Part shown: piece by piece, positions 4,610-49,698 of the stretch
Numbering within the stretch: position 1 is the stretch's first letter
How the letters are laid out: each line of letters begins with the position of its first letter
Source: Girardia tigrina
Lineage: Eukaryota
Length of the DNA: 50,664 nt
Reading direction: 5' to 3'
Assembly: GCA_001938485.1 (NCBI GenBank)
Contig: MQRK01223938.1
Span: 38,233 to 88,896 of the forward strand
Position numbers and translations under genes: made by a program
The notes under the pieces: model-generated
Seen by the model: only the letters and a program-made list of their open reading frames with translations
Told to the model about the DNA's origin: nothing
Databases searched by the model: none

Positions 4610-5262
4610 GAAAAACACGGGGAAGAATGTAAAATAATAATTAGTCGTATATCTTACTTTTGGATTAATTTCAATTCAGACTTTTACGAAAATCAAAAAA
4701 AGTTATGATTTAATAATTTTTTTGAATTAATCTCTTCATCAGTTACATTCAAATTTTTTATTAATTTTGTCTTTTGATTTTAAATAAATTGACTCCACAG
4801 TATTTTTAATGATGTTATTTAAATATTTTTTATTATAACCATTATTACTAAGTCTATTATGGAGAGTATCAATTTCTTTATCAAAAATTTCAAAAGAAGT
4901 TAAACTCCAAACTCTATGCACTAGACCCTTAATCATATTTCTATTATATTTTGGGTCACAGAAACTACTCGGAGTACTGTAAAGACCAGTGTCCGTTGAT
5001 TTTCTGTAGAACCTGTCAAAAATCTATTCTGCTTCCTTTCAATCAAGACATCCAAAAACGATATTTTATTATTTCTTTCACTTTCGCAAGTAAAATTAAA
5101 TATCAGAAAAGTATCATTTACATACCTGGTATAGAAGATTGGTAATTAACCCGGAAAAATTTTAAATTTTTGCTCCAAATTTTGTAAGAAAATTGAAGAC
5201 ATTAACGGAGCCAATGGAGAACCCGTTGCAACTCCATCAATTTGCATATACCAATTGTAATG
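4610..5262 (-). mobile_element. Penelope-like element reverse transcriptase fragment
   Basis: YMQIDGVATGSPLAPLMSSIFL, RYVNDTF (YVDD variant) and MIKGLVHRVWSL..LSNNGY; contains stops and frameshifts. Confidence 0.85.
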
Positions 5263-5857
5263 AGAGTCTTTTGATCTAGATATACATTTTAGTTCATGTA
5301 CCGGCATGGATTTTTGCACTTTTTTATTTTTATGGTGTATATTCGGCTTAGTGACTCTTTTTGTGACATATTTATATTTTTTTTATTTTTATTTCGAGGC
5401 TCGACGAAAGAGAGTGTGACAACTTTTGTTTTTTTTGTGTACTCTCTGATTTTTTTTGTTGCTTAATGTTAATCTGATTTTTGGTTGATATTTTTTATGT
5501 CGATTTCGTTATATTATATTTTCGTTATCGGATTAACATTTTTAAACGATATTAAAACTATTTTTATTTTAACCAAGAATATTTAATGTAAATATTTAAA
5601 ATAAAATATAAAGTTTAAAGTTAGTTCAGATTGTAAGGAGGAATATTAAAGCATTGAGTGATGGAATTAAGTGCGAGCAATACTATTGATCGACATAGAG
5701 ATTATCCAAATTGTGAATGTAATAAATATTCTGTCTTAACAACATTTGTGCTTCAAAATTACCAATTGAGACACAAATATGTGACTGCCATTTTGAGAAA
5801 ATTTTATAATTTAAGTGGTTAGATGAAGCAATAATCATTAGTGCAATGTTAATTAAT

Positions 5858-17050: not shown

Positions 17051-17987
17051 AGAATAATTTCTGTTTCGATCAAAATTAAAAAGAAATTATTTGAATTCTC
17101 AAATCAAATTTTTTCCTCTTTATTCGAATTTTCTCTTTTAGAGATTTTACATTCTTCTAATGATAACATCTAATTATGATCGAATAGAAAAGTTTTCATT
17201 GCTTCACTTATTATACTCGAATTTTAAATTTTTTAATTTTTGATAATCGATATTGGGTTCATCAAGCACATCAGTAACTTTAGTGTTTAATAATTATTTT
17301 TATTTGCGCATTAGTTGAATTTTATTTTTAAACATAATGCTTATGAATAAGAATTAATGAAATACTTATTTTGCTCATATATAATTAATCGAACACTATG
17401 AATAAAATCTTGATCAATTCTAAAAATGGATCATAACTAATACTTATTGTCGTTTCTGTCATTTAATAGGAGTTTTAACAGGAGTTTTGATATTTTCTCC
17501 TAAGCTATTTGTAATAACAGATGATCTTTTGTGTTTTGGAAAATTTGATGCTCTACTTTTGGTTAAAGCTCCACTACAATCTTTAATAATATGTTTTGAT
17601 ATTCATTATATTATTTGTATTTATAGAAGCAATCATCATATTTTATACAAATATGTATAAGTGTTTTATTTGGTATATTACATTCATACTATATTCAAAC
17701 ATACAAGAAAAGGATGATATTTGGAGATTGTTAAACTCGAAGAAGTAAAAGCAGTTACTGAAGAACTGACTAAGAAAACGCCATTGATTCCGTGATTACA
17801 GCGATTGTAATACGATCTGTTCTTCAAAGTAAACTAATAATCAAATTTCAGTTACAAAAATTTACTTTTTCTATTTTTTCAGTTCTCGGCATTAACTGAT
17901 TTCTGTTATTAAAACTTACCCCATGTTACCAATCTACCTGTATACTTAACATTATTATAATTTTGTTCTCACTAACAGTTTATATTA

Positions 17988-18963
17988 TTGGGTTGGTCAA
18001 AAGGTTATTGCGTTTTTGAGTACGTCCTAATAAAAAGCTTGAAAATATAAAACGATGTGATAAAATTTTAATTCAATTATATATTCTGAAACCTTAATTT
18101 TCAGACTATGTTTATACAAAATATTAATTGATTTGTTTTAATTTATTACTTTACCGACAATTCGAAATGGAAAATCAAAATGAGCATATTCGTCATGTTT
18201 TGTTGTATTATTTTCGCAAAGTGAAAACCGCTGTGCAAGCTCATAAGATATGTTTTGTATATGGTAGTGACTCCTTAAAACTTCGACAGTGTCAATACTG
18301 GTTTTCTAAATTTCGTTTTAAAAAATTTCATTTGAAAGATGCACCACGCTCCGGTCGACCAGTTGAAGTTGATGGTGACAAAATAACAGCACTGATCAAA
18401 TCTAATCCACATATGACGACAAGAGAAGTTGCAGAGACTCTGGAAATATCAAATTCAAGTGTTGTAAATCATTTAAAGAAACTTGGATTCGTCAGTAAAC
18501 TCGATATGTGGTTACCACATGAACTGAAAGAAATTCATTTGATGAAACGTATAGACATTTGCGATTCCCTTTTGAAGCGAGAACAAAGTGATCCATTTTT
18601 GAAGCACTTGATTACGGGTGACGAAAAATGGATTGTTTACATCAATGTGGAATGCCGGCGATCATGGACAAAACGTGGTGAGCCTGCCAAAACGGTCCCA
18701 AAAGCAAAAATTCACCAAAAGAAAGTTATGCTTTCCGTTTGGTGGGATTTTAAAGAAATTGTGTTTTTTGAACTCCTTCCGAGGAATGAAACCATCAATT
18801 CAGATATATATTGTGGTCAGCTGGAGAAATTGGCTCATTCAATTCAACAGGAACGTCCTGAATTGGTAAATCGAAAAGGAGTTGTAATTCAGCATGATAA
18901 CAAAAAATTTTTTTGATAATAAATATTTTAGTAAAAATTGAAATGACCTTTTGGCCAATCCAA
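17988..18963 (+). mobile_element. Mariner transposon, 3'-deleted transposase (ORF from about 18167 to 18916)
   Basis: TIRs ttgggttggtcaaaagg / ccttttggccaatccaa with TA flanks; HTH, WLPHEL, ITGDEKW and QHDN; YSPDLAP region missing. Confidence 0.95.
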
Positions 18964-20318
18964 TATATAAGATGAAGGTAAAATACGAAAAAAATACATA
19001 TTTTAAAATTTTTTTAGTAAACGACTCTAAGTTACTACTAAGTTAATGAATATTTTTTGGAGTTTTTTTATGTTTTGTTTCATAAAAATACTGAAGTTAA
19101 TGAAGATATTGAAATTCGCCATATTATGCTTTAAAAGGCATGTTTTAAGTGATTTCAAAAACTCCATCCATAAACGAAAATTCAGTAAAAACTAAATTAT
19201 AGCATAGTTCAAGAACTTTAAATTGAACGACATTAATTTTAATAATTAAAATTAGGAATTAGTAAAACCTCAAATTTAAATGACTAGGTACATTTGGCCA
19301 TAAAGGTACATTTGAACAGGCCAAAAGCTTGACAACGATAACGTTCAATGAAGCCTTTAATATGGACAAATGTATTCTTCCCTGGAATTGTCCAACTACC
19401 AAGTAAATTGAAAGTAGTATTTAAAATATATAATGAATAAGCAGTGAGCTAATTACTTGAAGATGATTTCGTTAAAAGTATTTTTTGAATACAAAATTGA
19501 CTTTAATTATGTATAAACATAAACTATATTAATTAGAAGCAAAAAAGTGAAATTCTTTTTATCTGAAGTTGTGATTTCAATGTTATCCATCTCTCTGTTC
19601 TGGGAGAATTACGGAACAATGTCATTGTACGGATTGTTGCTCCTAGTCGGAACGCCAACTACTTTATTAACTTGTTTATGTCATACGGTTGAACGACCAA
19701 AACATAATGATATTTTTAAAAATGAACAATAAAACATTCATTGAATATAGTAATAAATAAGAGATTATCAAAATCCGAAATTAAAGGAAAATGAACACAA
19801 AAGCTCTATTTAGTTAACTTATTAATAATGTCCCCATTGTTCAGAAGACTATTAAAACTGAAATATGTTAAAAGCTTTTAAAAAGCATCAAACTTGATGT
19901 TAATCTTAACATACTATATTCTAAAGTTATGTTTCACAAGAAGAAGCTTGGTTACATGAAGAATAACAAAGAACGACTTAATTTTTAAAAAGCTTTCTTT
20001 CTTTTTTTTTGCATCGGTATATTTGATTTCTTGCTGGAATTATCTTAGTACCAAAACTTTACTCAGTACAATGATCCCCTAAATATTTTGGTAAATTAAT
20101 AATTTTACTTACTTAATAAAGAAAATGATCTTCCTTACAAACTATTTACAATAATTTGATATATAAATAGCTGTAAAGCAATTTGTTGTATTAATGAATA
20201 CAAGAATAAATACCATTTTATTTGTATTATTCACAATAATAAACGTTTTCTAAGAGTTTTTACTTCCCAACTTTATTTATTTTATCAAGTACTTCCTATT
20301 TTATCACAATAATTAAAT

Positions 20319-21463: not shown

Positions 21464-21815
21464 TAAATTTTTTTTCTTAAAATTGCTTCTTTATGTGTTC
21501 AAAAATAAAATGTCACTATTTGTTAATTATTTGATTTATTATTGTTATTATTATTTTTACTAAAAATATATAAATTAAACTGTTTTTCAAAAAAATTTAA
21601 ACTACTACATTTATAAAATTTTCTTTCAAAAAGCATAAAAATATTTAACATTATTAATTTTTATTAAATAAAAAAATTAGTATTTTCTAAACAATAATAA
21701 CTTTTCACAATATAGAAAAAATCAAAACATTATTATATTTATTTAAATAAAAATAAATGCAAAAATTTATGAGAAAATTAAAAAAAATTTAAATAAAATA
21801 ATGATCATTTCTTAC

Positions 21816-22352
21816 CGCTGGAAAATAATATTTCTCTGATCATTATCCATTGAGATTGAAAATGGATATTAATTGACACGAAATGCCCAATATTCTCCTC
21901 TAAATCTATCATTATCCATCTGGTGTTGAAATTTTCGTAATCTTCTTTAATCGCATGATTGATGGGTTTTTGTCTATCGAATTTAATCCCATCAGAGCTG
22001 AATTCAATCACAATTTGTTTAGGAAGTGCCACTGATTCTGGCCGATAATTGGCAACTCTCAAATTGACATTGAAAAATTTACGGTTGTTTAGAAATCGAA
22101 ATAAAATTCGAACGTAATCGGAAGGAAAATCAGCCCGATTCCATCCGACAAATGGAAAAGTCGTCATATTAAATGGATTGTTATCGTCCTTCTCATAATC
22201 ATTGTCAGTTAATTTTCCCAAACCGGATTTTAAAACACCCGTGTGAAGGAGAACCCCATCGTAGGACTGGTCAGTAAAATAAGATTCTTTGGTATTTTTC
22301 TGAGGATTGAAGTACAAGCTACCATCAACCATTTGATATTCAATAACATTAT
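21816..22352 (-). CDS. DDR: DDR-like receptor tyrosine kinase, exon encoding the discoidin-like (DS-like) domain
   Basis: Acceptor tttag|AT and donor AGCG|gtaaga; 537 nt, phase 1-1. Translation has YDG...GLGKLTD, FVGWNR, ILFRF..RKF and QWIMIREILFSS, matching DDR DS-like motifs (YDG..GGLGQLADG, YVGW, WLLFSEISF). Confidence 0.9.
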
Positions 22353-23299
22353 CTAAATTTTTATAATTTTTTAAAAATTTATATAATATTTTCAAAAAAT
22401 TACTTAAATACATTTTTTTGTGATTGAATAATTTCTCAACTAAAATAATTATTAATTTTCTTTTATTTTAGTTTACTTATTTTGAAAGAAAAATAAACAA
22501 AAAAAATAATAATGTTCATGTAAGACAAATTAAAAAATTTTTTTCTTTCATTAAGGAAAATAATTTAATGAGAAATACTAAAAAAAATTGTTATAAATCT
22601 TAATTTTAATTGAAATTTGCAGTAAATAATTAAGAACTCATTTATCAGTCTTGTGGTGCATAATTTTGTTTTAATGAAAACGAAATTAATTTTTTAATTA
22701 TTAATTTTATCATTGATAATCATTATAAATTAATATTCAAGTGATTTTTCTGCGTGATTTTTCTAAAATTTTTTTTAAAAAAATATTTTTTAAATTTACA
22801 TAAATTTTAAATGGAAAAAATCTTTCTTTTATTTTATGTGAATAAAATAAGAAAAAGAAACTTTATCGATTATTTTTCTTTATTATTACATTTAGATTTT
22901 TTTTTGTTTAAATTACGATTTTCGACGAGAGGAAAAAATATAATATTTTAATTTTTAAGAATATATTAAATTTTAAATTACCATGTGTAAATTAATTATT
23001 CAGAAATTGTTTTACAAATCGATATTATTTTGCAACTAAAATTTTAATAAATGATATTTTTATAATAATTAATATTTACGATAAATAAAATAATATTAAG
23101 TTTTGTGAATGCCCATTTTATATTTTTGAAACAAAATAATTTATTCTTTTATTAAGAAATTGATTATTGAACATTATTTCTGAAGATTACTTACATTTAA
23201 TTGCTAGTTTTTTATGAAAGATTATAAAAATGTATATTTATTAATTCTAGTATCATTAGATAAGGATGTGATAAAAACTTAATTTAATAAAAGATTTTA

Positions 23300-24290
23300 A
23301 GATTTAAAACGGTTTTTTGTCCATTTTGAATAAACATTAAATGGGTTGTAGGGTCTTATCAAAAATGATTCACAGAACTTTCTCTCTTAATGTGAATTAA
23401 AGTCCTTCTGTAGAACAGAAAACTCATCCTTTGAAACAGAAGACATTCTATTTTTAAAGAGTAACCAATGATAAAGAACTTTACTCAATCGACTTGATTG
23501 TGAAGGCTCATTAATTTGGGTTTTGAGATAACGATTTGTCTCTTCCATGAGTATCTGCAGTCTCTTTCATTGGTATTGCCTCTACGTTCTTTAGATTGTC
23601 CACTAAAATGTAAGAGTATCTAGTAGTCCTCCGAAAGGCCTGATACTTGGTTGGATTGATTTCGTCCCTTTTCGGCTTTTTCATAAGGAACTATCACTAA
23701 TGAACTGTAGTTCCATGATTCTGCGTGTCTTTGGTTGTATTTATTGGTAGGAAAAGTCAATCGCATCATGTATTTTAAATCGGTCACTCATAAAAGTACT
23801 AAAGCTATTGGTTACTTAACGTTGAAGATTGGACGCGATCAGGTTTACCTAACCTTGCATGGTCATTTTAAGTTCACATTATGATCATATTTATGATGAT
23901 TTCAACATTAACGTATTCAAAGATCCTACCTCAATACTTAATGACCTTAATAGTTGGGCGTGCAACATTTATCCAATGATCTGCTGTCTCTATTTAAACA
24001 ACTTGGTTATACTGCCTTCTTATTATATTCTTCTTCTTAACTACTCATCTCAAACCTTTCCATGGTCAAGCATTCCAGTTGCTGTATTACAAGCTGTATT
24101 ATTACACCAAATATAAGAGATTTTACATTCGTGACAATGTAATTTAATTTATAATTCGATTTGAAGGATTTAGAGCATTTAAGAAGAATATTTACCATAT
24201 TATAGTTAGTGGTTTCAATTACATCCAAAGTTTAAAGCTTCATCTGAAATAAATCGAAAACGATTTGTGGATTGTAATATTACTAATCTA
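23300..24290 (-). mobile_element. Penelope-like element fragment (same family as 27491-29070) with 5' inversion and an insert in the GIY-YIG
   Basis: 23340-23550 aligns to 28882-29070 (about 83% over 89 nt counted by hand); CHECKISYI at about 24110-24140; 24160-24290 is an inverted copy of the pre-endonuclease segment. Confidence 0.8.
23551..24102 (-). mobile_element. Decayed zinc-finger insert, homolog of 28311-28881
   Basis: Its 3' end aggcctttcggaggactacTAG...agtggacaatctaaaga...caatacca..agaga matches the 3' end of the 28.3-28.9 kb insert; HGTTVH versus HGTKFH. Confidence 0.65.
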
Positions 24291-24654: not shown

Positions 24655-26180
24655 TGGTGAGGCGACTTTACCGCGGGTGACTTTACGGCTGATTTTTTTC
24701 AGAAAAAAATATTAAAAATTTATAATATTAATATTAAATAATTAAATAAATTCAATTTTCTTAACATTTTTAATTAAGATATTTTTGCCATTGTTACCGA
24801 ATAGTACTTAATTAAAATATAATATTTATAATAAAATTTTCCATTTAAGTTATTATACCTTTAAAAATATACCTTAAAATGTTATAAATTTCTAAAAAAA
24901 TTTTTTCTCACACTTTTTTCAGCATGAATCTTCAATTCTTTACTTCAAAATCTGGAAATACGATTGTTGCGTATGCGGGTAAAGTGGTCGCTAGGCCATT
25001 GCTCAGATGGTTGCAACTCGTGCATCGCAGACAGTAGACGGCCCCGTGGCAAATTATTCAGAAATCTAGGACTGGGATTCCACTTGACGCTGCAATATTT
25101 CTTCCAATTGATCGCTCTAGTTAACGTACAATTCAACGAAAACGAAAACAAGATAATCCTCCTTGGCCAAATCCAAATCATCTTTCTGAAATAAATGTTC
25201 CTGATAATTTGAGGTTTACAACTAGAAATGAATCTTTTTTGATATAAGATTCTGGATCTAATGATGTCAACCGGATAATGCTACTCAGTACAACTGCAAA
25301 CATAAATCTGATGGCTTCTTGTGAAAATTGGTTTATGAATGGGACATTCTCTGTCGCCCCTCGATTATTATTACCTAGTTTAAAATCAAACAAAGTATTG
25401 CCTCTTGTTTATGCATTGATGACCAATAAAACTCAATTAAATTACACTCGTATGTTTGAAGAGCTTTTAAGACAACAACCAAATTTAAATCCGCAAACTA
25501 TTATGATGGATTTTGAAAAAGGGGCAATGAACGCTGTTTCCACTGTATTTTGCAATGCTACTGTTAAATGCTGTTTTTTCATCGGAACCAATCAATTTGC
25601 AAAAAAATAAAAGAAACATCAAATCTTCCGGACCTCTATTCAAACAATGATGAATCGCACAATTTTCATCGCAAATTTATGCCAAAGTAAGTGAGAGGAT
25701 TGAACGTTGAGCAATAAAATAATTTACCAATATTGGATTATCTTAGAGGCGTTGCTCATAATTTAAACTTTTTGGATTAAAGTATATATTTACTATTCAA
25801 TTATTTTAATATATCAGTTTAATGTTTTTGTATCTTTCTTCAATTTACACATCACATTTTTTTGGTGTGTTATTCATTTGTTCTAGAATGTTATTTGAAT
25901 TTTTTAAATTAGGAATTTAATATTTCGTATGTTGTATGTTTATTTTTTATATTAAAAGGAATAATTAAAAGTCAGGTCGATCTGAAATTTTCTATCCATT
26001 TATGTTTTAAAATTAAAACCTTTGTATGATTCATTGTTTTATCATAACATAATTAAAAATTGTTATTCATATTTTAGATAAAATTGTTCACTTATTGACA
26101 ATTTTGTTGTAAATTTCCCGCAGTAAGGTCGCCCGCTGTAAAGTCACCCGCGATAAATTCGCCCGCGGTAAAGTCACCAG
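24655..26180 (+). mobile_element. MULE (Phantom-like) element with 15-bp subterminal repeats
   Basis: Inverted ggtgactttaccgcg repeats at both ends; transposase motifs WFMNGTFSVAP, VLPLVYALMTNKT and IMMDFEKGAMNA; frameshifted. Confidence 0.85.
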
Positions 26181-27494: not shown

Positions 27495-29070
27495 TCAAAT
27501 TTTGTGCCAAAAATGTACCTTTTCTTTTTAATGAATTCAGGAAGACTGTATCGCAATGGGTTCTCCATTAGCACTAACTTTGGCATCAATCTTTATGAAG
27601 TCGCTTGGGGATAAAATGAATGCATACCCTGGTGAAAAACCTGTGTTGTCCAAGAGATATGTGGATGATGTCTTTTTGGTTTTCAGAAATCAATCCCTCA
27701 ATGAACCATTCCTAACATTTATGAATGGTCTTCATCCGAATATTAAATTTACCACAGAATTGGAAGTAGATAATAATCTTCCCTTTCTGGGCATTCTTGT
27801 CACTAGGATGAATGGAGGCTATAAAACTGAATTATTCAAAAAGGCAACAAATACAGGTCTTTAAAAAACACCACAGAGTTTTTGTGAGGAACAATATAGA
27901 GAGGGTATGATAAAATGGCTTGTTCACAGAGTTTGGAATTTGTCGTCCAGTTTTGAAATTGCAAATCAGGGTTTAAATATTCTTAGAAGGCGCTTGAAGG
28001 ACAATATGTATACAAACAAGCAAATAGAACACAACATTAGGGTAACATTAGACAAATTATGTACATATGTACGAGTTAAGAAACAATTAAAGGAAGAAAT
28101 TACTGAGAAATACAAACAAATCCTTAAAATACCATATTCTGGTGGATTTAGAGCGTTTAAGAGTAATATTTATATAACAATACGTAGTGCTAAAGTAGTC
28201 TCTGTCACATCCAAAGTTTAAAGTTTCCTCTCAAACAGTTTTTGGTTCACAAACTAATCTGGTATATAAATTTAATTGTCACGGGTGTCAAAACTCGTAC
28301 ATCGGAGAGATCACGAAGGAGCAGAGCCAATCCCGCAGAAGAAGAGAGAGAAAAAAGCCCAACCACGTCAGAAGAAAGGAAAATATCAATGTCAACACTG
28401 TCCGAGGGAATACAAAGCCGCTGGTTTCCTAAGGATTCATATTCAGAAGAATCATTAAGAAACGCCAACATCCAACGCACAGAGAGAAGAAAACTTAGAG
28501 AAGAGAACGAGGAAGAGCCGATATCAAACCAATCCAATCCTCAGTTGCCGGACGCAACTGTGAGTATGCCGAGGATACAGCTGAACGACAATGCCGAAGA
28601 CACGCACCTACAATACCGACTGCCAGCCGATTACAAGACTGCAAGAGGACAATTTAAGTGCCCATTTCGCGGTTGTTACGCGTTCACCGTAACAGCCAAC
28701 GGCATGTACGGCCATGGTACAAAGTTCCATGGTTGGTCGTTCGTTACTGCTCAGTTGACTGCTCAGAAGCGGAAGGCCACGGACCCTGTAGGAGGCCTAT
28801 CGAGGGGCCATTAAGGACTTTAGTTTGAGTGGACCCTCTAAAGAGCCTTAGGCTCAATACCATTACAGAGATGGGAGGCCCACATCGGAGAGACAAATCG
28901 TCATCTCAAAACCCGGATTAGAGAGCACTCACAAATGAGTCGATTGAGTAAGGTTCTTGATCATTGGTTATGTTGTGATACTTCATCCATTTCAAAAGAA
29001 GAATTTTCTGTTCTACAAAAGGGATTTGATTGACATTACAAACCACAGTTTTGTGAATCTCTACTAATAA
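27491..29070 (+). mobile_element. Penelope-like element (RT plus GIY-YIG), 5'-truncated at a (TA)n tract, endonuclease split by an insert
   Basis: MGSPLA..IFM, KRYVDDVF, HPNIKFTTELE..LPFL, MIKWLVHRVW; VYKFNCHGCQNSYIGE [insert] IGETNRHLKTRIREH. Confidence 0.92.
28311..28881 (+). mobile_element. 571-bp insert encoding two C2H2 zinc fingers, with a 12-bp TSD
   Basis: ACATCGGAGAGA duplicated at 28299-28310 and 28882-28893; YQCQHCPREYKAAGFLRIHIQKNH and FKCPFRGCYAFTVTANGMYGHGTKFH; stop at 28814, short 3' tail, no poly-A or TIR. Confidence 0.85.
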
Positions 29071-35708: not shown

Positions 35709-36616
35709 TTAGGTTGTCCTAAAAGTTCCTGGTCAAGAATGAAAAATACAATTTTTTGTGCAAGAATAAAAATAAATAACAATTAATCTTCAAAGTATAG
35801 TCCATCTTTTTCTTTTACTTTCACCAACGGTCTGCAAGCTTTCAGATCTGGTAAAAGTACCATTCCGGCTGCCTCGAATTGAAGACATGCTTGCTAAACT
35901 TCATCGAATGCTTCGAATATGCTACCTTTCAAGAAGTGTTACATGGATTAGCAGAGGCCATAGTCGGATGGAGTGAAATCAGGGCTGTAAGCAGGATGAC
36001 TCCATCCAACTCTTGGAACCTGCTCGGGGTCTTCTTGGCGGTATGCGGCTTGGCATTGCCTTGATGAAGCAGTACACGTTTTTGGTTGATTAAGGTAGGG
36101 TACTTCTCCTTGAGCCTCTCGTAGACACGGTCCAGCTGTTGACAATAGAGCTCTACATTGATGGCCTGACCGTGCTGAACCAACTCAAAGTGCACTACTC
36201 CCTCAAAGTTCCACCAGATGCACAACATGATTTTCAAGCCAAATCGATCTGGTTTTGGAACTGATGGGGTTGCTTAACCCGTTAGAACACATAGCTTGTC
36301 TCGGTTGTGGTTGACCAAGTAGACCCCCTTTTCGTCCGACGTCACAATTCGTTTCTGCTCGTGGATTCTGTAGCAGTTGTCGGCAAATTTGAACTCTTTT
36401 ACCGGCCTGTGCTTTGGTGAGTTTGTGTGGATCTTGACGCTGTTTCTTGTGCACGCAGCAACACACGGATTTCAAGATTTGAAATCTCGTAGTCCATTTA
36501 ATGCTATAAATAAATCGATATATCTATATATATATATATCAAAAAATAATGCCAATAAGAAATTTGAAAAAAAATTGTATTTTCATTATTGACCGGAAAC
36601 TTTTAGGACAACATAA
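35709..36616 (-). mobile_element. Mariner element, internally deleted and frameshifted
   Basis: TIRs ttaggttgtcctaaaagtt with TA flanks; motifs PHKLT, VTSDEK, MLCIWWN, QGNAKPH and HPAYSPDFTPSDY. Confidence 0.92.
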
Positions 36617-43560: not shown

Positions 43561-45469
43561 TATCAGACCTTTTAAAAAGGATTTTCAATTTCGGATCGTT
43601 ATCGATAGTTAAAATCCAAAAAATCTGTCCATTCTTTTCCTAGCGGAATCAGCTGCGTCTTTATGGGCTCGGACACAGCTACGAAAAAATCGAACAACAT
43701 TTTACTTCTCATTGTCAAATATTTTCAGGTTTTAATATTTATTATTATTTTTTAATATTTTTATTTGTTTAATGTACTTTATATAAAAAGAAAAGTTGTT
43801 TAAAATTCAAATTATTTTTCCTTTAATTACTGTTTACAATTTAACAAAACATTTTTTTGGATTTTTATTAAAATCTAAGATAAAAAATGGTATTAATTCA
43901 AATAAAAAAAATTTGTAAGTTATGAAAATTTTGTTATCTTTACAATAAAAAAATGTTAATTTTGTTTGAATAATATTTTTATTATTTAACTTTGTTTATT
44001 TTTTTAATTATTAAAAAAAATATATTTAAGTATATTTACAATTGTCGAATAAATATTATCATAATATCAATTTTAATTAAAATAAATATTAAATACTTTT
44101 TATAAATAAATATTTTGAAAATGTTTTAATTACGAATATATTTATTTATTAAATTAAATATGCAATTGATATTACAAATATTTAATTTAACTTTTGTTTT
44201 TTATTATTTTTTTGATTGATTTTTAAGAAATATTAAATTAAAACAAAATTGATGAAGTTTTTTTTATAATTATGATGTAAAATGTTTGATATATTTGAAA
44301 AATAGCTTGTTCATTTTTTAAATGGTTTTTTACGTGAGTTTTTATTGATTTTTATGTTCTGATAAAAGCAATTTGTTTCTTTTTTAAAAAATCAGTCTAT
44401 TAAAAAAGACTTGAAATATGTTAAGCAAAGAATTTATTGATTTTTTGGAATTTTTTATGTTTGGTTTTTTTTAATTAGGACTTTCGATAAAATAATTAAA
44501 GAAATTAATGGAATTTTAAAAATCAATTATAAATTAATTTTGATTTTAATAAAATCAATATTTTAAATTTAGTACTTTTAATTTATTTTTATATTCCTTG
44601 TTATGATTGTGGTGCTCCTGTCAAACGACCGAAATTATAAAACTGACTTATTTAAATAAATTAATGAAAAATAATTTTTGTGTAACAAATTTGAATATCA
44701 TTAATTAAAAAACATTTTTTTCTCAACTATGTTTGTTATTTACCTCGAAGTATAGAAGAAAAACGTGTCAAAAATTAAAATTTGTTGAAATGAGTGGGGA
44801 ATCACACTACACTGCCCTACAGCGGGCCTGATCTGTCGGATCCCGTGCGTCATCTCCTCACACAATTAGTCGACGCACGTCGGATCCACGCGACCACATT
44901 AACTGCGTATTTGGGTCACGGGTCGATGAATCGAGTCGATTATCCAACACTTCGAGCTGCATTGACGGTCACAGAAAGAGGCACGCGTTACGGGAAGCTG
45001 CAGTTAACCGGATATGAGACCGCTACTCAGCGGTGCACCGATCGGTATCGTTCAGGTCTAATCGAACTCTGATCGGCACAGAACCGGCCGATCCTTTCGC
45101 TGAATTGTAATTTCTCGAACAAGAAAAGGTGCTGGCCGCCGCCATTCATTCCGGTAGCGGCACCTCAATGATCATTATACTACCAAAAATAATTTTGTTA
45201 ACAAATTGGTAAATTTTCGAAAAGTTTATTTTTTACACTTTTTGATCAAGAATAAATTTTTAACTAAATTATTATTATATTCTTGGCGTTAGTCATTATG
45301 GTCTAATACGAAGATTATTTAAAAAATAAAATTTTTATTTTCATAAATATTTTTGTCTTTTATACAGAGACAAATAAACAAAAAAAATTATAGAGCTTTC
45401 TTTTGCTTTAAAAACTTGAGAAAAAATTTAAAATATGTATTCTTTCGTATTTTACCTTCATCTTTTATA

Positions 45470-46577
45470 TTGGGTTGGCCAAAAAGTCATTGCGTTTTTT
45501 GCTAAAATATTTATTATCAAAAAATGACATGGATGCACAAATATTTTTACACGATATACTGTCCATTATTTTCAATCACTTTCTTCCACCTTTCCGGTAG
45601 CTTCATTATTCCTGATTCATAAAAACCTTTGCCTTTGTCAGCAAAAAAGCCGTCTAGAAACGATTTGATGTCATCATCACTGGCGAATGTTTATTTCTGT
45701 TTAAGGAATTCTGCAGTGATCTAAATAAGTGAAAATCAGATGGGGCCAAGTCTGGAGAATACGGTGGGTACGGCAAAACCTCCCAACCCAGTGATAAAAG
45801 TTTCTGGCGAGTGGTCAAACTTGTATGTGGTCTTGCGTTATCATGCTGAATTACAAATCCTTTCCGATTTACCAATTCAGGACGTTCCTGTTGAATTGAA
45901 TGAGCCAATTTTTCCAGCTTTCCACAATATCTGTCTGAATTAATGATTTCATTCCTCGGAAGGAGGTCAAAAAACACAATTCCTTTAAAATCCTACCAGA
46001 CGGTAAGCATAACCTTCTTTTGGTGAATTTCTGCTTTTGGGATCGTTTTGGCAGGCTCACCACATTTTGTCCATGATCGTTTCTTTAAATGACTTCCAAC
46101 ACTTGATTTTAATATTTCCAGAGTCTCTGCAACTTCTCTTGTCGTCATATGTGGATTAGATTTGATCAGTGCTGTTATTTTATCGCCATCAACTTCAACT
46201 GGTCGACCGGAGCGTGGTGCATCTTTCAGATGAAATTTTTCAGAACGAAATTTAGAAAACCAGTTTTGACACTGTCGAAGTTTTAAGGAGTCACTTCCAT
46301 ATACAAAACATATCTTCTTATGAGCTTGCACAGCGGTTTTCCTTTTGCGAAAATAATACAACAAAACATGACGAATATGCTCATTTTGATTTTCCATTTC
46401 GAATTGACGGTAAAGTAATAAATTAAAACAAAATCAATTAATATTTTGTATAAACATAGTCTGAAAATTAAGGTTTCAGAATATATAATTGAATTTAAAT
46501 TTTACCACATCGTTTTATACTTTCTAGCTTTTTATTAGGACGTACTCAAAAACGCAATGACTTTTTGGTCAACCCAA
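45470..46577 (-). mobile_element. Mariner transposon, same family as 17988-18963, central deletion
   Basis: TIRs ttgggttg with TA flanks; MENQNEHIRH N-terminus, QHDNARPH and YSPDLAPSDFHLF; lacks the WLPHEL-GDEKW segment. Confidence 0.95.
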
Positions 46578-47050
46578 TATTTTAGATATTTGAAAGTTTT
46601 TTTTATTTTTTTTCTTTTAAGTTGTTTTCCCATTATCTCTTTGGTATTCCTCTGATTGGATCTTTTTTGACTTAATTCAAATTTTAACTTTCCATAGTGC
46701 TTGTTTTCTTATCACATGTTCATTAAATTTCAGACTCGGTTTTGTGACTGTCTCTTATATTTATTCTGGTTTTTCACATAGCATTTCTGCTACTCTTTTT
46801 TAGCAAAGTTTTTTTCCTTTTTCTTTTCGTGTAATCGTCAGCATTCTCCTTAAGCACTTCATTTTAGCACTTTCAATTTATGTATATTCTTCTGATATAA
46901 TGTCAAACTCTCGTATCCATAGAGAGAGGTTGCTCCAGTAATTTTATAAAATAATTTTAAAATTTTGTTATAAGCTTATTAAAATTAAATTTTTTAATTA
47001 TTTATTATGTGAAATAATAATATTCCTTTCCGAAAATTTTTTTCTGAATT

Positions 47051-47680: not shown

Positions 47681-49698
47681 CAGTGTTTCTCAAACCGTCT
47701 GCCGCGGTACACTACTGTGCCGTGGAAGAATTACAGATGTGCCGCGGGTTTTTCTTTAAATGTTCGTAACATTATAAAAGTCGGCCTACTTATTTCATCA
47801 TCCGCTGTGATGATGTCACCGCTCGTAACAACCAGTAATAGTAGCGCCAAATCAAAGCATAAATTTAGGCCACCCTGGCAGTCACACAACAGTCGTGGAA
47901 TTGTTAACGATAATAATATTTGGTGTGTTTCATATAAATTTTTATGTTGTATGCTTATATTTTACAATCTCAATTTTAGATTCTAAAATTATCAATAGAG
48001 TTTATTGAATAAACGATATTCATTTTTATCCATGGAAAAACATGTTAGCAAGTACAAAACTGTGAAAGCGTTAAATAAAAAGCATGGAACCAAACGAAAA
48101 TACAAAGAAGATTATATCGAGTATGGTTTCATATCTTCGGTACCAGATCCATTGCCATTCTGTCGGATCTGCAATTCAGCTCTGTCAAATGAGGCGCTTG
48201 CTTCAAGCAAATTGAAAAGACTTGGAAACGAAACATCCAGCTGTGAAAGAACAACCGAATTAATACTTCGAAAACATCAGGGATCAACAAAATAAACAAG
48301 CTAAGAAATTTACAAACTACCTAAAGCTGCCAGAAAAGGGATTGATTGCAAGTTATAAGGTTGCTCAGCTACTAGAAAAACGCAAAAAAGCTCATACAGA
48401 TGCTGAATCAGTCATTGTACCAGCTTTAGCAATAGTTGTTGAAACTGTCCTTGGGTTTCATGCTGCCGAAAAAGTTAAAAGAGTTCCTTTCTCAAACGAT
48501 ACTATCTCACGCAGAATTGAAGACTTATCGTCAGATTTAAAAGATCAAATCTGCGAACACTTTGAAGCGCCCGAAGATGAAATGTCTCTGTTGTGGTCTC
48601 TTCAAGTTGATGAATCTACTGACAATAGCAGCAAAACCCAGCTTCTGGCTTTTATTCGGTTCATAAAAGATGGAAAATGTGTCCGCGAGTACTTATTTTG
48701 CAAAGAATTACAAACTACGATCAAAGGCGAAGATATTTTCAATGTAGTGATCGAAAACATTTTACTTTTTAAACTACAATGGAAAAACTGTGTCAGTGTC
48801 TGCACCGATGACTTCCCGTTCATGCATGGAAGTAGAAATGGATTCGTAACTCTCGTGCTTCAAGAAAATCTAAATGTGTTGGTTGTTCACTGCATGATCC
48901 ACCGAGAAGCTCTTGCCTTCAAATCTTTACCAAAAGATATGATTTCTGTTCTGGATCAAGTGATTACAATTGTAAACTTCATCAAATCTCGACCACTTGC
49001 ATCACGACTTTTCTCTCAGTTACGTGAAGCAATGGATTCAGAGTATAAATACCTCCTATATCACACTAACGTTCGTTGGCTTTCTAGAGGAAAAGTGTTA
49101 AAGCGTGTCGTCCAACTCAAGGCTGAACTAATTTCGTTCTTAGAGACTGAACAAAAAAACCTTGAATTTTCTATACATGACGAGATCTAGCAGATTCGGG
49201 TGACATTTCCTTTTGATTTATTTTAAAAATTAAATTAAAAATTAAAATTAAATTAAATTCTTCAAGGGCCATCAGAAAACATCATCACTGCATCCTCAAA
49301 ACTGAAGTCATTTGGTGAAAAGTTGTTGCTGTGGCAAAGTAAGATCTTAAAAGGAGTCTTCGACTTCTTTCCTACTTACAACAAATGTTCTTCCAATAAA
49401 GAAATCACCTCCGAAATTATTTACACATTGACACACCTGCTGTCAGCACTGCAACATTACTTTCCAACACTGGCAAGTAATGAATATGGATGGGTCAGCC
49501 ATCCATTTGGAAACTACGAAACTACACATCTTATAACTGAAGAAGAAGAACAGCTCATTGATATAAAAAATAATGCATTTCTTCAGTCAAGATTTGCCTT
49601 TCATTTTAAGATGGGCTTAACTGTTGGTTTTCCTGGTGTGCCGCGATTTTTTTAGCTTCGTTACTGTGCCAATACACAAAAAAGTTTGAGAAACACTG
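47681..49698 (+). mobile_element. hAT transposon, Buster/Charlie group, defective
   Basis: TIR cagtgtttctcaaac; 8-bp TSD gactatat/aactatat with central TA; BED-like CRIC, LQVDESTD, HCMIHREAL and VRWLSRGKVL; stops and frameshifts. Confidence 0.95.

Follow-up and report, generated by a model that had tools for sequence, protein, structure and literature searches.

According to the available part of PMC4640811, target-specific families are most numerous in the early-branched RLE elements, Tx1 and R1, and within the APE-type LINEs most reports of target specificity concern R1 and Tx1, the two APE groups named there as target-specific. Ribozyme-mediated release from rRNA transcripts is the way of life of R2, and RTE elements also carry such ribozymes (PMC3774820 and PMC5786205, as far as their accessible text goes). 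The RTE element RTE-1_MD is given as random-inserting in the accessible text of PMC13708176.

The window, i.e., the whole stretch of 50,664 nucleotides of Girardia tigrina DNA analyzed here, contains two copies of Penelope-like elements (PLEs) that are split by inserts, insert A at 28311-28881 (plus strand) and insert B at 24114-23551 (minus strand). We consider it very probable that B is a single old insertion of 7SL, 5S and LINE-end sequence, likely produced by two template jumps, and that the LINE from which it derives, with APE, RT and C2H2 domains in a single ORF, inserts at one 28S base and at a matching GIY-YIG site of PLEs, likely reading GGTGTC-N8-T/AC in both (the slash marks the point of insertion). 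Judged from sequence comparison, the parent is likely an rDNA specialist that spills onto a Penelope decoy, its cleavage and binding activities being putative.

Both inserts are located at the T/AC point of the GIY-YIG motif C-x-x-x-Y-I-G-E, between the T and the A of the Tyr codon, and the sequence-only reading was right to place B at the identical PLE site as A. Upstream of A, the host PLE comprises an RT remnant, a linker and the GIY-YIG start (27535-28298, plus strand; the RVT_1 match is weak, E=0.04), with the GGTGTC-N8-T motif at 28284-28298 (plus strand), and the remaining GIY-YIG region downstream (28894-29059, plus strand) reads I-G-E-T-N-R-H-L-K-T-R-I-R-E-H. The host PLE upstream of B (24115-24160, minus strand) carries a decayed GGTGTC-N8-T motif and is identical to the 5′ flank of A at 24/30 positions; downstream, the remaining GIY-YIG region (23367-23539, minus strand) is 78-80% identical to other copies. 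The colinear 5′ PLE flank of B is only ∼45 bp long and is followed by an inverted segment of the same PLE family (24166-24249, plus strand), which is 72% identical to 28144-28235 in the same orientation, the rest of B being reversed. The ∼83% identity given earlier for the PLE flanks holds beside the insert (69/81, 85%), but the longer 3′ flank is less similar (133/170, 78%). Both hosts in the window are broken fragments; an RT with a C-terminal GIY-YIG domain, as in Penelope-like elements, was found on related copies, among which L017 matches Pfam GIY-YIG at E=3e-5 and P0290 combines PF00078, PF01541 and PF26215. Two further PLE GIY-YIG motifs with an empty target, at window positions 1771 (plus) and 40720 (minus), belong to other PLE families. 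Judged from their motifs, the regions 17986-19013 and 45421-46579, 35929-36523, 24928-25610 and 48264-49655 presumably comprise mariner-like transposase copies (93-95% alike), a fragment resembling a MULE that lies between the two inserts, and what is left of a hAT-like transposase. The exons at 21805-22467 (minus strand), 0.9 kb from B, presumably belong to a host gene and have a galectin-like carbohydrate-binding look.

Insert A is a 5′-truncated copy of LINE subfamily 1, 93-95% identical to 39 other best-scoring copies and bounded by a 12-bp target-site duplication at its 5′ end (28299-28310) and its counterpart at the 3′ end (28882-28893, all on the plus strand). Finger 2 is found at 28390, finger 3 at 28659 and the stop codon at 28812, after which comes the tail; longer relatives of A reach into RT and then APE.

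Insert B consists of 7SL RNA, 5S rRNA and a LINE 3′ end, all in sense orientation, with both RNAs at full length. On the minus strand, a remnant of the 5′ target-site copy (24107-24114, by alignment) overlaps the first bases of the 7SL (SRP) RNA copy (23872-24112), which is 73-77% identical to L034 (a Metazoa_SRP match of 231 bits); 51 nt are deleted from it at 24038/24039 in the window allele, and another allele has 51 extra letters there. The 5S rRNA copy with its U-run follows (23750-23870), covering Rfam RF00001 positions 1-120 at E=0.057, which is below gathering, and matching the 5S gene copy L164 at 91/120 positions. Next are the second half of finger 3, the 3′ UTR and the tail of the zinc-finger LINE (23551-23749), nearest to subfamily 2: the identity of 136/180 (76%) to L047/L049 is the best of 102 distinct tails compared, and the exact source subfamily was not found among these. 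The 3′ target-site copy (23540-23550) agrees with the PLE target at 8/11 positions.

The sequence-only reading took B to be a second, much more diverged insert that aligns with A only at its 3′ end. Such an alignment is indeed confined to the last ∼170-200 nt (118/171 columns identical), the HGT codons with their synonymous differences and both tail motifs agree with that reading, and degraded target copies are present at both junctions, the 5′ one as a remnant of only ∼7-8 nt. The part that does not align, however, is 7SL RNA (24112-23872) and 5S rRNA (23870-23750). The 5′ 360 nt of B score 21.5 against A, compared with a shuffle mean of 23.0 and with 140/200 shuffles scoring as high, which rules out a LINE diverged along its whole length. 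An assembly artefact is ruled out by junction-spanning contigs in two public contig sets, which are two samples of one study and of which one may be the window's own source; each junction is spanned at single-copy depth (about 20-90 per contig) by alleles several percent apart.

Tandem arrays of linked 5S and 7SL genes exist in the genome (L033, L034, L037), and their 5S type differs from that of L164-L169, which gives two 5S gene types in all. An origin of B's 5S in such an array is ruled out by the better fit of the other 5S gene type (124 vs 75.5); compared with the array, B also has the reverse order and no spacer. A dispersed 5S-headed family, SINE3-like or otherwise 5S-headed (L163, L170, L173-L176, L178-L189, L191-L192), has members ∼80% alike with a common downstream body and a head with a short deletion near the 5′ end. 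B is without that deletion, which rules this family out as the source.

Substitutions in B were counted by base class against the proper source of each part. G/C sites have changed at 28/65 and 13/37 positions in the 7SL, 23/61 in the 5S and 39/102 in the LINE part, compared with 24/69 in the PLE 3′ flank (35-43% for the parts of B against 31-35% for the flank), and A/T sites have changed at 7-18% in the 7SL, 10% in the 5S, 18% (17/95) in the LINE part and 11% (12/108) in the flank. The LINE part and the PLE flank do not differ (G/C, P = 0.75; A/T, P = 0.23). Thus, after correction for mutation bias the divergences of insert and flank are largely equal, contrary to the excess divergence of the insert proposed in the sequence-only reading. 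The small A/T excess of the LINE part over the 7SL and 5S parts (P = 0.04-0.09) fits an unsampled source subfamily, as the H-G-T-T of B matches other subfamilies. Since 7SL and 5S genes are constrained, their copies in B date the insertion, and the equal decay per base class in all parts indicates an old, single-locus chimera. The proposal that the two inserts diverged while still coding applies to the parent subfamilies (dN 0.40 against a saturated dS of 2.9 over 167 codons) but not to B, two thirds of which is non-coding RNA and whose zinc-finger remnant has three stops. Independent insertion of A and B, as proposed, is borne out by their different subfamilies, different 5′ structures and divergence from relatives of ∼5% (A) and ∼25% (B).

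Genome searches covered an AT-rich assembly of 1.43 Gb. A search with B matched its three parts separately, and none of the 40 scored of 83 candidates spanned more than one part; an exact young 7SL-5S join was not found, nor was a second 7SL-5S-LINE trio or any further copy of the composite, and very old copies could escape such searches. A script run over 318 LINE-bearing loci detected small-RNA captures only in B and in L323, in which the PLE target is followed by tRNA-Gly and a full-length LINE. L190, whose subfamily was not among the queries, has 5S before a full-length LINE with the 5′ end of another subfamily. Another RNA-RNA chimeric retrocopy, a 7SL copy joined directly to 28S rRNA fragments, was observed at L040:1005-1784.

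The parent of B is a single-ORF LINE with the order APE-RT-C2H2, full-length copies of which are ∼3.8 kb long with an ORF of ∼1,200 aa (L064, L391). Its close relative P0214 has one 1188-aa ORF with Exo_endo_phos, RVT_1 and zf-C2H2 (Pfam). In L064 and L391, a leader of ∼150 nt precedes the APE frame and leaves no room for ORF1. The APE frame of the copy searched had no PDB match at E≤1, and Pfam gave only E=0.012 on it; its APE catalytic motifs are presumptive. The exact 3′ tail pattern was matched 2,652 times in the assembly, i.e., by at least 2,652 tails, with 0 matches in the control. The LINE ends at a fixed G/C-rich base followed directly by the target, without a poly(A) or short tandem-repeat tail. 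Between the subfamilies, of which A represents subfamily 1 and the LINE part of B is nearest subfamily 2, dN is 0.14-0.40 and dS 1.3-2.9, indicating purifying selection.

The copies follow a target-specific pattern of fixed 3′ junction, variable 5′ truncation (inserts of 565-1947 nt at the PLE site) and target duplication of ∼11 bp (modal length 11 bp in 25/49). The specificity figures are from samples of copies: the PLE site was found at 28/69 3′ ends of all copies with one tail variant (24/61 after collapsing duplicates), at 54/91 full-length 5′ ends (90 loci out of 167 matches) and at only about five of the first 30 tail matches by contig number, a low bound given the bias from short contigs. 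Insertions at the homologous codons also occur in further PLE families (L011, L028, L120, L128, L217, L320). Specificity is loose in this genome, which counts against our preferred explanation: 41/69 sampled 3′ ends are outside the PLE site. Stray sites were examined in 24 junctions, the number left from 36 non-PLE junctions not scored as tandem after removal of seven duplicates, three tandem cases, one in another PLE family and one same-locus repeat. GTG-N10-TA was present at the expected distance in 11/24 of these, whereas its frequency in background windows was 1.2%, and the counts peaked at a spacer of 10. The choice of motif followed inspection of the sites, but its margin over background is wide; 13/24 sites are without an exact copy. 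Among ten stray copies with duplications found from the 3′ side, T/A was at the cut in 9/10 and the full upstream motif only in some. The stray copies have duplications of their own, 10-14 bp long and starting at the same offset, and 36/41 non-PLE 3′ flanks start with AC or AT.

The 28S site has the same GGTGTC-N8-T/AC layout as the PLE site (Rfam LSU positions ∼2800-2824), and its upstream half is identical to the Rfam eukaryotic LSU consensus. The 28S flank resembles the planarian 28S sequence in PMC4640811 S6 Fig, which makes a triclad flatworm the likely host. Several tandem junctions had in common an 11-bp duplication other than that of the PLE site, and a search with the tail plus that sequence gave 10 matches, two of which join LSU rRNA directly and eight of which run into a further element, i.e., tandem arrays. 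In L391 the order is 28S, short element, full-length LINE, short element and short element, each behind the same 11-bp duplication, and the LINE begins with the same bases as those at the end of the 28S duplication. Several lineages have full-length, long-ORF copies within 28S arrays, and further APE lineages are present at the 28S base (L350, L383). The assembly contains few insertions in 28S (10 tail matches vs 2,652), which also counts against the preferred explanation. None of the 26 matches to the upstream 28S site was an uninterrupted site: 11 are short AT-rich repeats, two are unreadable and 13 continue into non-28S sequence. This absence probably reflects collapse of the rDNA in the assembly. 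Among eight metagenomic relatives, three show the 3′ end, and one of these three (L361, 28% aa identity, on a metagenome contig of another organism) ends at the same 28S base with a flank identical to that of L354 at 83/85 positions; its 5′ flank is non-rDNA, yet carries the motif. The other two, L359 and L362, have 3′ ends outside rDNA, which, like the 5′ flank of L361, counts against the preferred explanation. No relatives were found in IMG/VR.

Other sequences were observed at or near this site. At least four other insert types occupy the same 28S base (L368, L371-L374, L378, L385, L386, L357, L267/L301), most of them without a long ORF within 1.5 kb. AT-rich repeats of ∼215 bp (L369, L370, L375, L380-L382, L384, L388) have 26 nt identical to the 28S target, with no insertion seen inside; read on the opposite strand, this match continues into CTGA, presumably as in a box C/D snoRNA guide, and the repeats had no Rfam match. 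Short non-coding elements with an HDV-like head and a LINE-like tail (L391:804-1070, 4951-5363 and 5375 onward; L299, L316, L318, L376) were seen within 28S arrays and, in a single case (L318), at the PLE target, resembling SIDE-like partners of the LINE.

The distribution of copies between the two targets could be read the other way around, the family now being a Penelope specialist, i.e., a hyperparasite that uses and disables another retroelement, with the GIY-YIG codons as its selected target and 28S as a relic. The 40-60% of sampled copies at the PLE site and the several PLE families hit agree with such a lifestyle, as do the 666 exact empty PLE sites remaining, which imply that a large share of the PLE family is occupied. 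We regard it as unlikely, because the stray sites have only the motif common to both targets, full-length copies with long ORFs are found in 28S arrays in several lineages, the element begins with the bases at the end of the 28S duplication, and the rDNA is likely collapsed in the assembly. Insertion without any sequence-specific nuclease, either by amplification of a PLE+LINE composite or by annealing of read-through RNA tails to DNA, is scarcely credible. It would account for the same 3′ junction in most top matches and is already largely refuted by a site common to different truncation points, subfamilies and PLE families, by a stray-site motif that is upstream of the cut and beyond pairing by 3′ read-through, and by stray copies that have their own 10-14 bp duplications at the same start offset.

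The origin of B can also be explained in more than one way. Successive insertions at a regenerated site, the LINE end first and then 5S and 7SL mobilized in trans as in the 28S arrays, would draw on the tandem insertion common in this LINE family and on the 5-10 nt of no assigned source between 5S and LINE in B. However, array members are separated by the 11-bp duplication, for which there is no room at the 7SL-5S join, and the decay is the same in all parts of B, making this scenario improbable. Still less probable is the view that B alone remains recognizable from an extinct family of SINEs with a 7SL-5S head and a LINE tail. A Pol III head with a LINE tail is the standard SINE plan (PMC5786205, available part), and copies 25% from their master are hard to detect with B as the query, but no second copy was found in genome searches, and human LINE-1 chimeras are each unique events in the accessible text of bioRxiv 2025.02.02.635956. 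Two template jumps in the course of target-primed reverse transcription are the likely origin of B, with ligation of RNAs as the known alternative route to chimeras (same preprint, accessible text).

Several features point to how the parent LINE might work as an rDNA specialist. A match to the HDV ribozyme RF00094 starts at element nucleotide 1 (E=0.009, 32.9 bits against a gathering cut-off of 50). A rule-based test of HDV pairing was passed by 3/3 short elements, by 0/8 other 5′ ends, LINE copies included, and by 1-3 of 300 shuffles; the failures among LINE copies are partly due to copy mutations and in one case to an offset start. The HDV-like fold is a nested double pseudoknot with a catalytic C in J4/2; visual comparison of L064/L391 with L190 shows changes on both sides of P1 and of P2. 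The conserved tail, suggested in the sequence-only reading as a cis-acting signal, is a plausible one because it is common to the non-autonomous short elements, but in B's copy the fold is lost (−2.5 vs −16 to −17 kcal/mol in others), and z-scores for folding reach only −0.2 to −0.7. Covariation amounts to one compensatory pair in 4/12 rows, with a central hairpin common to the short elements showing a G-C to A-U change; in the MAFFT alignment, two stems of the short elements are off by a single column, which makes these pair counts conservative. The tail motifs kept in B are those that A/T-biased decay would spare. In the rows parsed from 32 proteins, the residues of fingers 1 and 2 that face DNA are conserved throughout the clade: position −1 of the finger-1 helix is E/D and position 6 is R in 28/28, and the finger-2 helix has T/S, G, W and R in 21/27. 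By the C2H2 code, R6 and T-1/G2 would presumably read G-N-T and then G-Y-N, in agreement with GGT-GTC. We infer that the fingers may read GGT-GTC; however, the linker is long, and subfamily 1 and its sister are without the finger-2 arginine, yet have the same target sites, which counts against this reading.

In the life cycle that we propose, the predicted 5′ HDV-like ribozyme would cut the element RNA out of an rRNA co-transcript, the upstream GGTGTC would be bound by the conserved C2H2 fingers 1 and 2, T/A would be the point at which the APE domain nicks the bottom strand, and the second nick would follow ∼11 bp downstream. Reverse transcription would begin at the structured tail of the LINE and, when the RT falls off, could continue on the 3′ ends of abundant Pol III RNAs. 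The 28S site would be the ancestral target, and the PLE site a decoy arising from the Gly-Cys-x-x-x-Tyr codons kept by the PLE nuclease.

The affiliation of the LINE was estimated from an RT tree of 75 regions (FastTree, midpoint root, no named RTE reference). In it, 24 zinc-finger rows form one branch (SH 98), nested within a branch of 62 rows (97) that also contains all 10 DUF6451 rows and is separate from the L1-like and RNase-H rows. A DUF6451 region after RT is typical of RTE; the match in P0002 was at E=0.071, and L079 and L063 gave none. This tree carries the affiliation no further than "RTE-like", with RTE, RTEX, RTETP and Proto2 not separable in it. We lean slightly toward the broader view that a widely spread RTE-group lineage evolved rDNA specificity independently of R1, Tx1 and R2, with a C-terminal C2H2 reading head and a two-part GGTGTC-N8-T/AC site in the 28S peptidyl-transferase region, and that it has here moved onto conserved catalytic codons of a Penelope nuclease, one retroelement systematically knocking out another.

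In the literature searched, which did not extend to Repbase and Fell et al. 2025, so that a prior description is possible, targeting of 28S and Penelope by an RTE-like LINE was not found described, and no element of the APE/RTE type was found reported for this 28S base or for the GIY-YIG codons of Penelope; the accessible text of PMC5035012, PMC10946416, PMC2048585, PMC13586686 and PMC13708176 mentions no such element. If an RTE-like lineage has its own 28S site, this would be a further origin of APE-type target specificity with a testable modular explanation (fingers plus nuclease). The thousands of on-target, decoy and stray insertions in one genome already provide material for studying how specificity loosens or shifts. 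As the upstream half-site is the Rfam eukaryotic LSU consensus, the single ORF of ∼1,200 aa is, in addition to R2, a candidate tool for RNA-only gene insertion. Although minor, B is a clean example in which two conserved RNAs serve as internal clocks for the date of insertion.

Like the LINE, the R1 and Tx1 clades (R1, RT1/RT2, Keno, Tx1L) are of the APE type and have fixed insertion sites, in their case in rDNA, small-RNA genes or other transposons, and the 28S site of RT1/RT2 may lie near that of the LINE. R1 and Tx1 elements have a gag-like ORF1 upstream of APE-RT, whereas full-length copies L064 and L391 have none, the RT groups with RTE-like sequences, and recognition is likely via the C2H2 fingers. 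The RTE clade (RTE-1, Bov-B type) has in common with it a single ORF with APE and RT, a short 5′ UTR, a predicted 5′ self-cleaving ribozyme and non-autonomous short partners (PMC5786205 and PMC3774820, available parts), and its nearest RT matches outside the zinc-finger clade, many with DUF6451, are the sequences among which that clade nests. Unlike RTE elements, the LINE has two or three C-terminal C2H2 fingers, a fixed 3′ end, a defined target and no 3′ poly(A) or microsatellite tail. R2 and SIDEs resemble it in the 28S target, the 5′ HDV-like ribozyme and the short non-autonomous elements made of ribozyme and 3′ signal (PMC3774820, available part), but R2 has N-terminal fingers/Myb, a restriction-like nuclease and another 28S site, and the RLE signature of R2/NeSL/R4, a C-terminal restriction-like endonuclease without APE, does not describe a LINE with N-terminal APE and C-terminal C2H2. 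LIN9_SM, a NeSL-related, 28S-specific planarian element, inserts in the same 28S stretch only 3 nt away (PMC4640811 S6 Fig, available part), but in the opposite orientation, with a T-rich end, no duplication at the boundaries shown there and a placement with RLE-type NeSL in that source, whereas the present LINE has an APE domain; LIN9_SM is thus a precedent for the site and not for the LINE family. Finally, the small-RNA/LINE-1 retrocopies (U6-L1, 5S-L1, 7SL-L1, tRNA-L1), as given in the accessible text of bioRxiv 2025.02.02.635956, resemble B in having a small RNA upstream of the 3′ end of a LINE and a single target duplication, and in being unique events, but the human 5S/L1 chimeras are mostly truncated and antisense, whereas B has two full-length sense RNAs in series. 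In kind, B is an ordinary chimera; its triple form is unusual.
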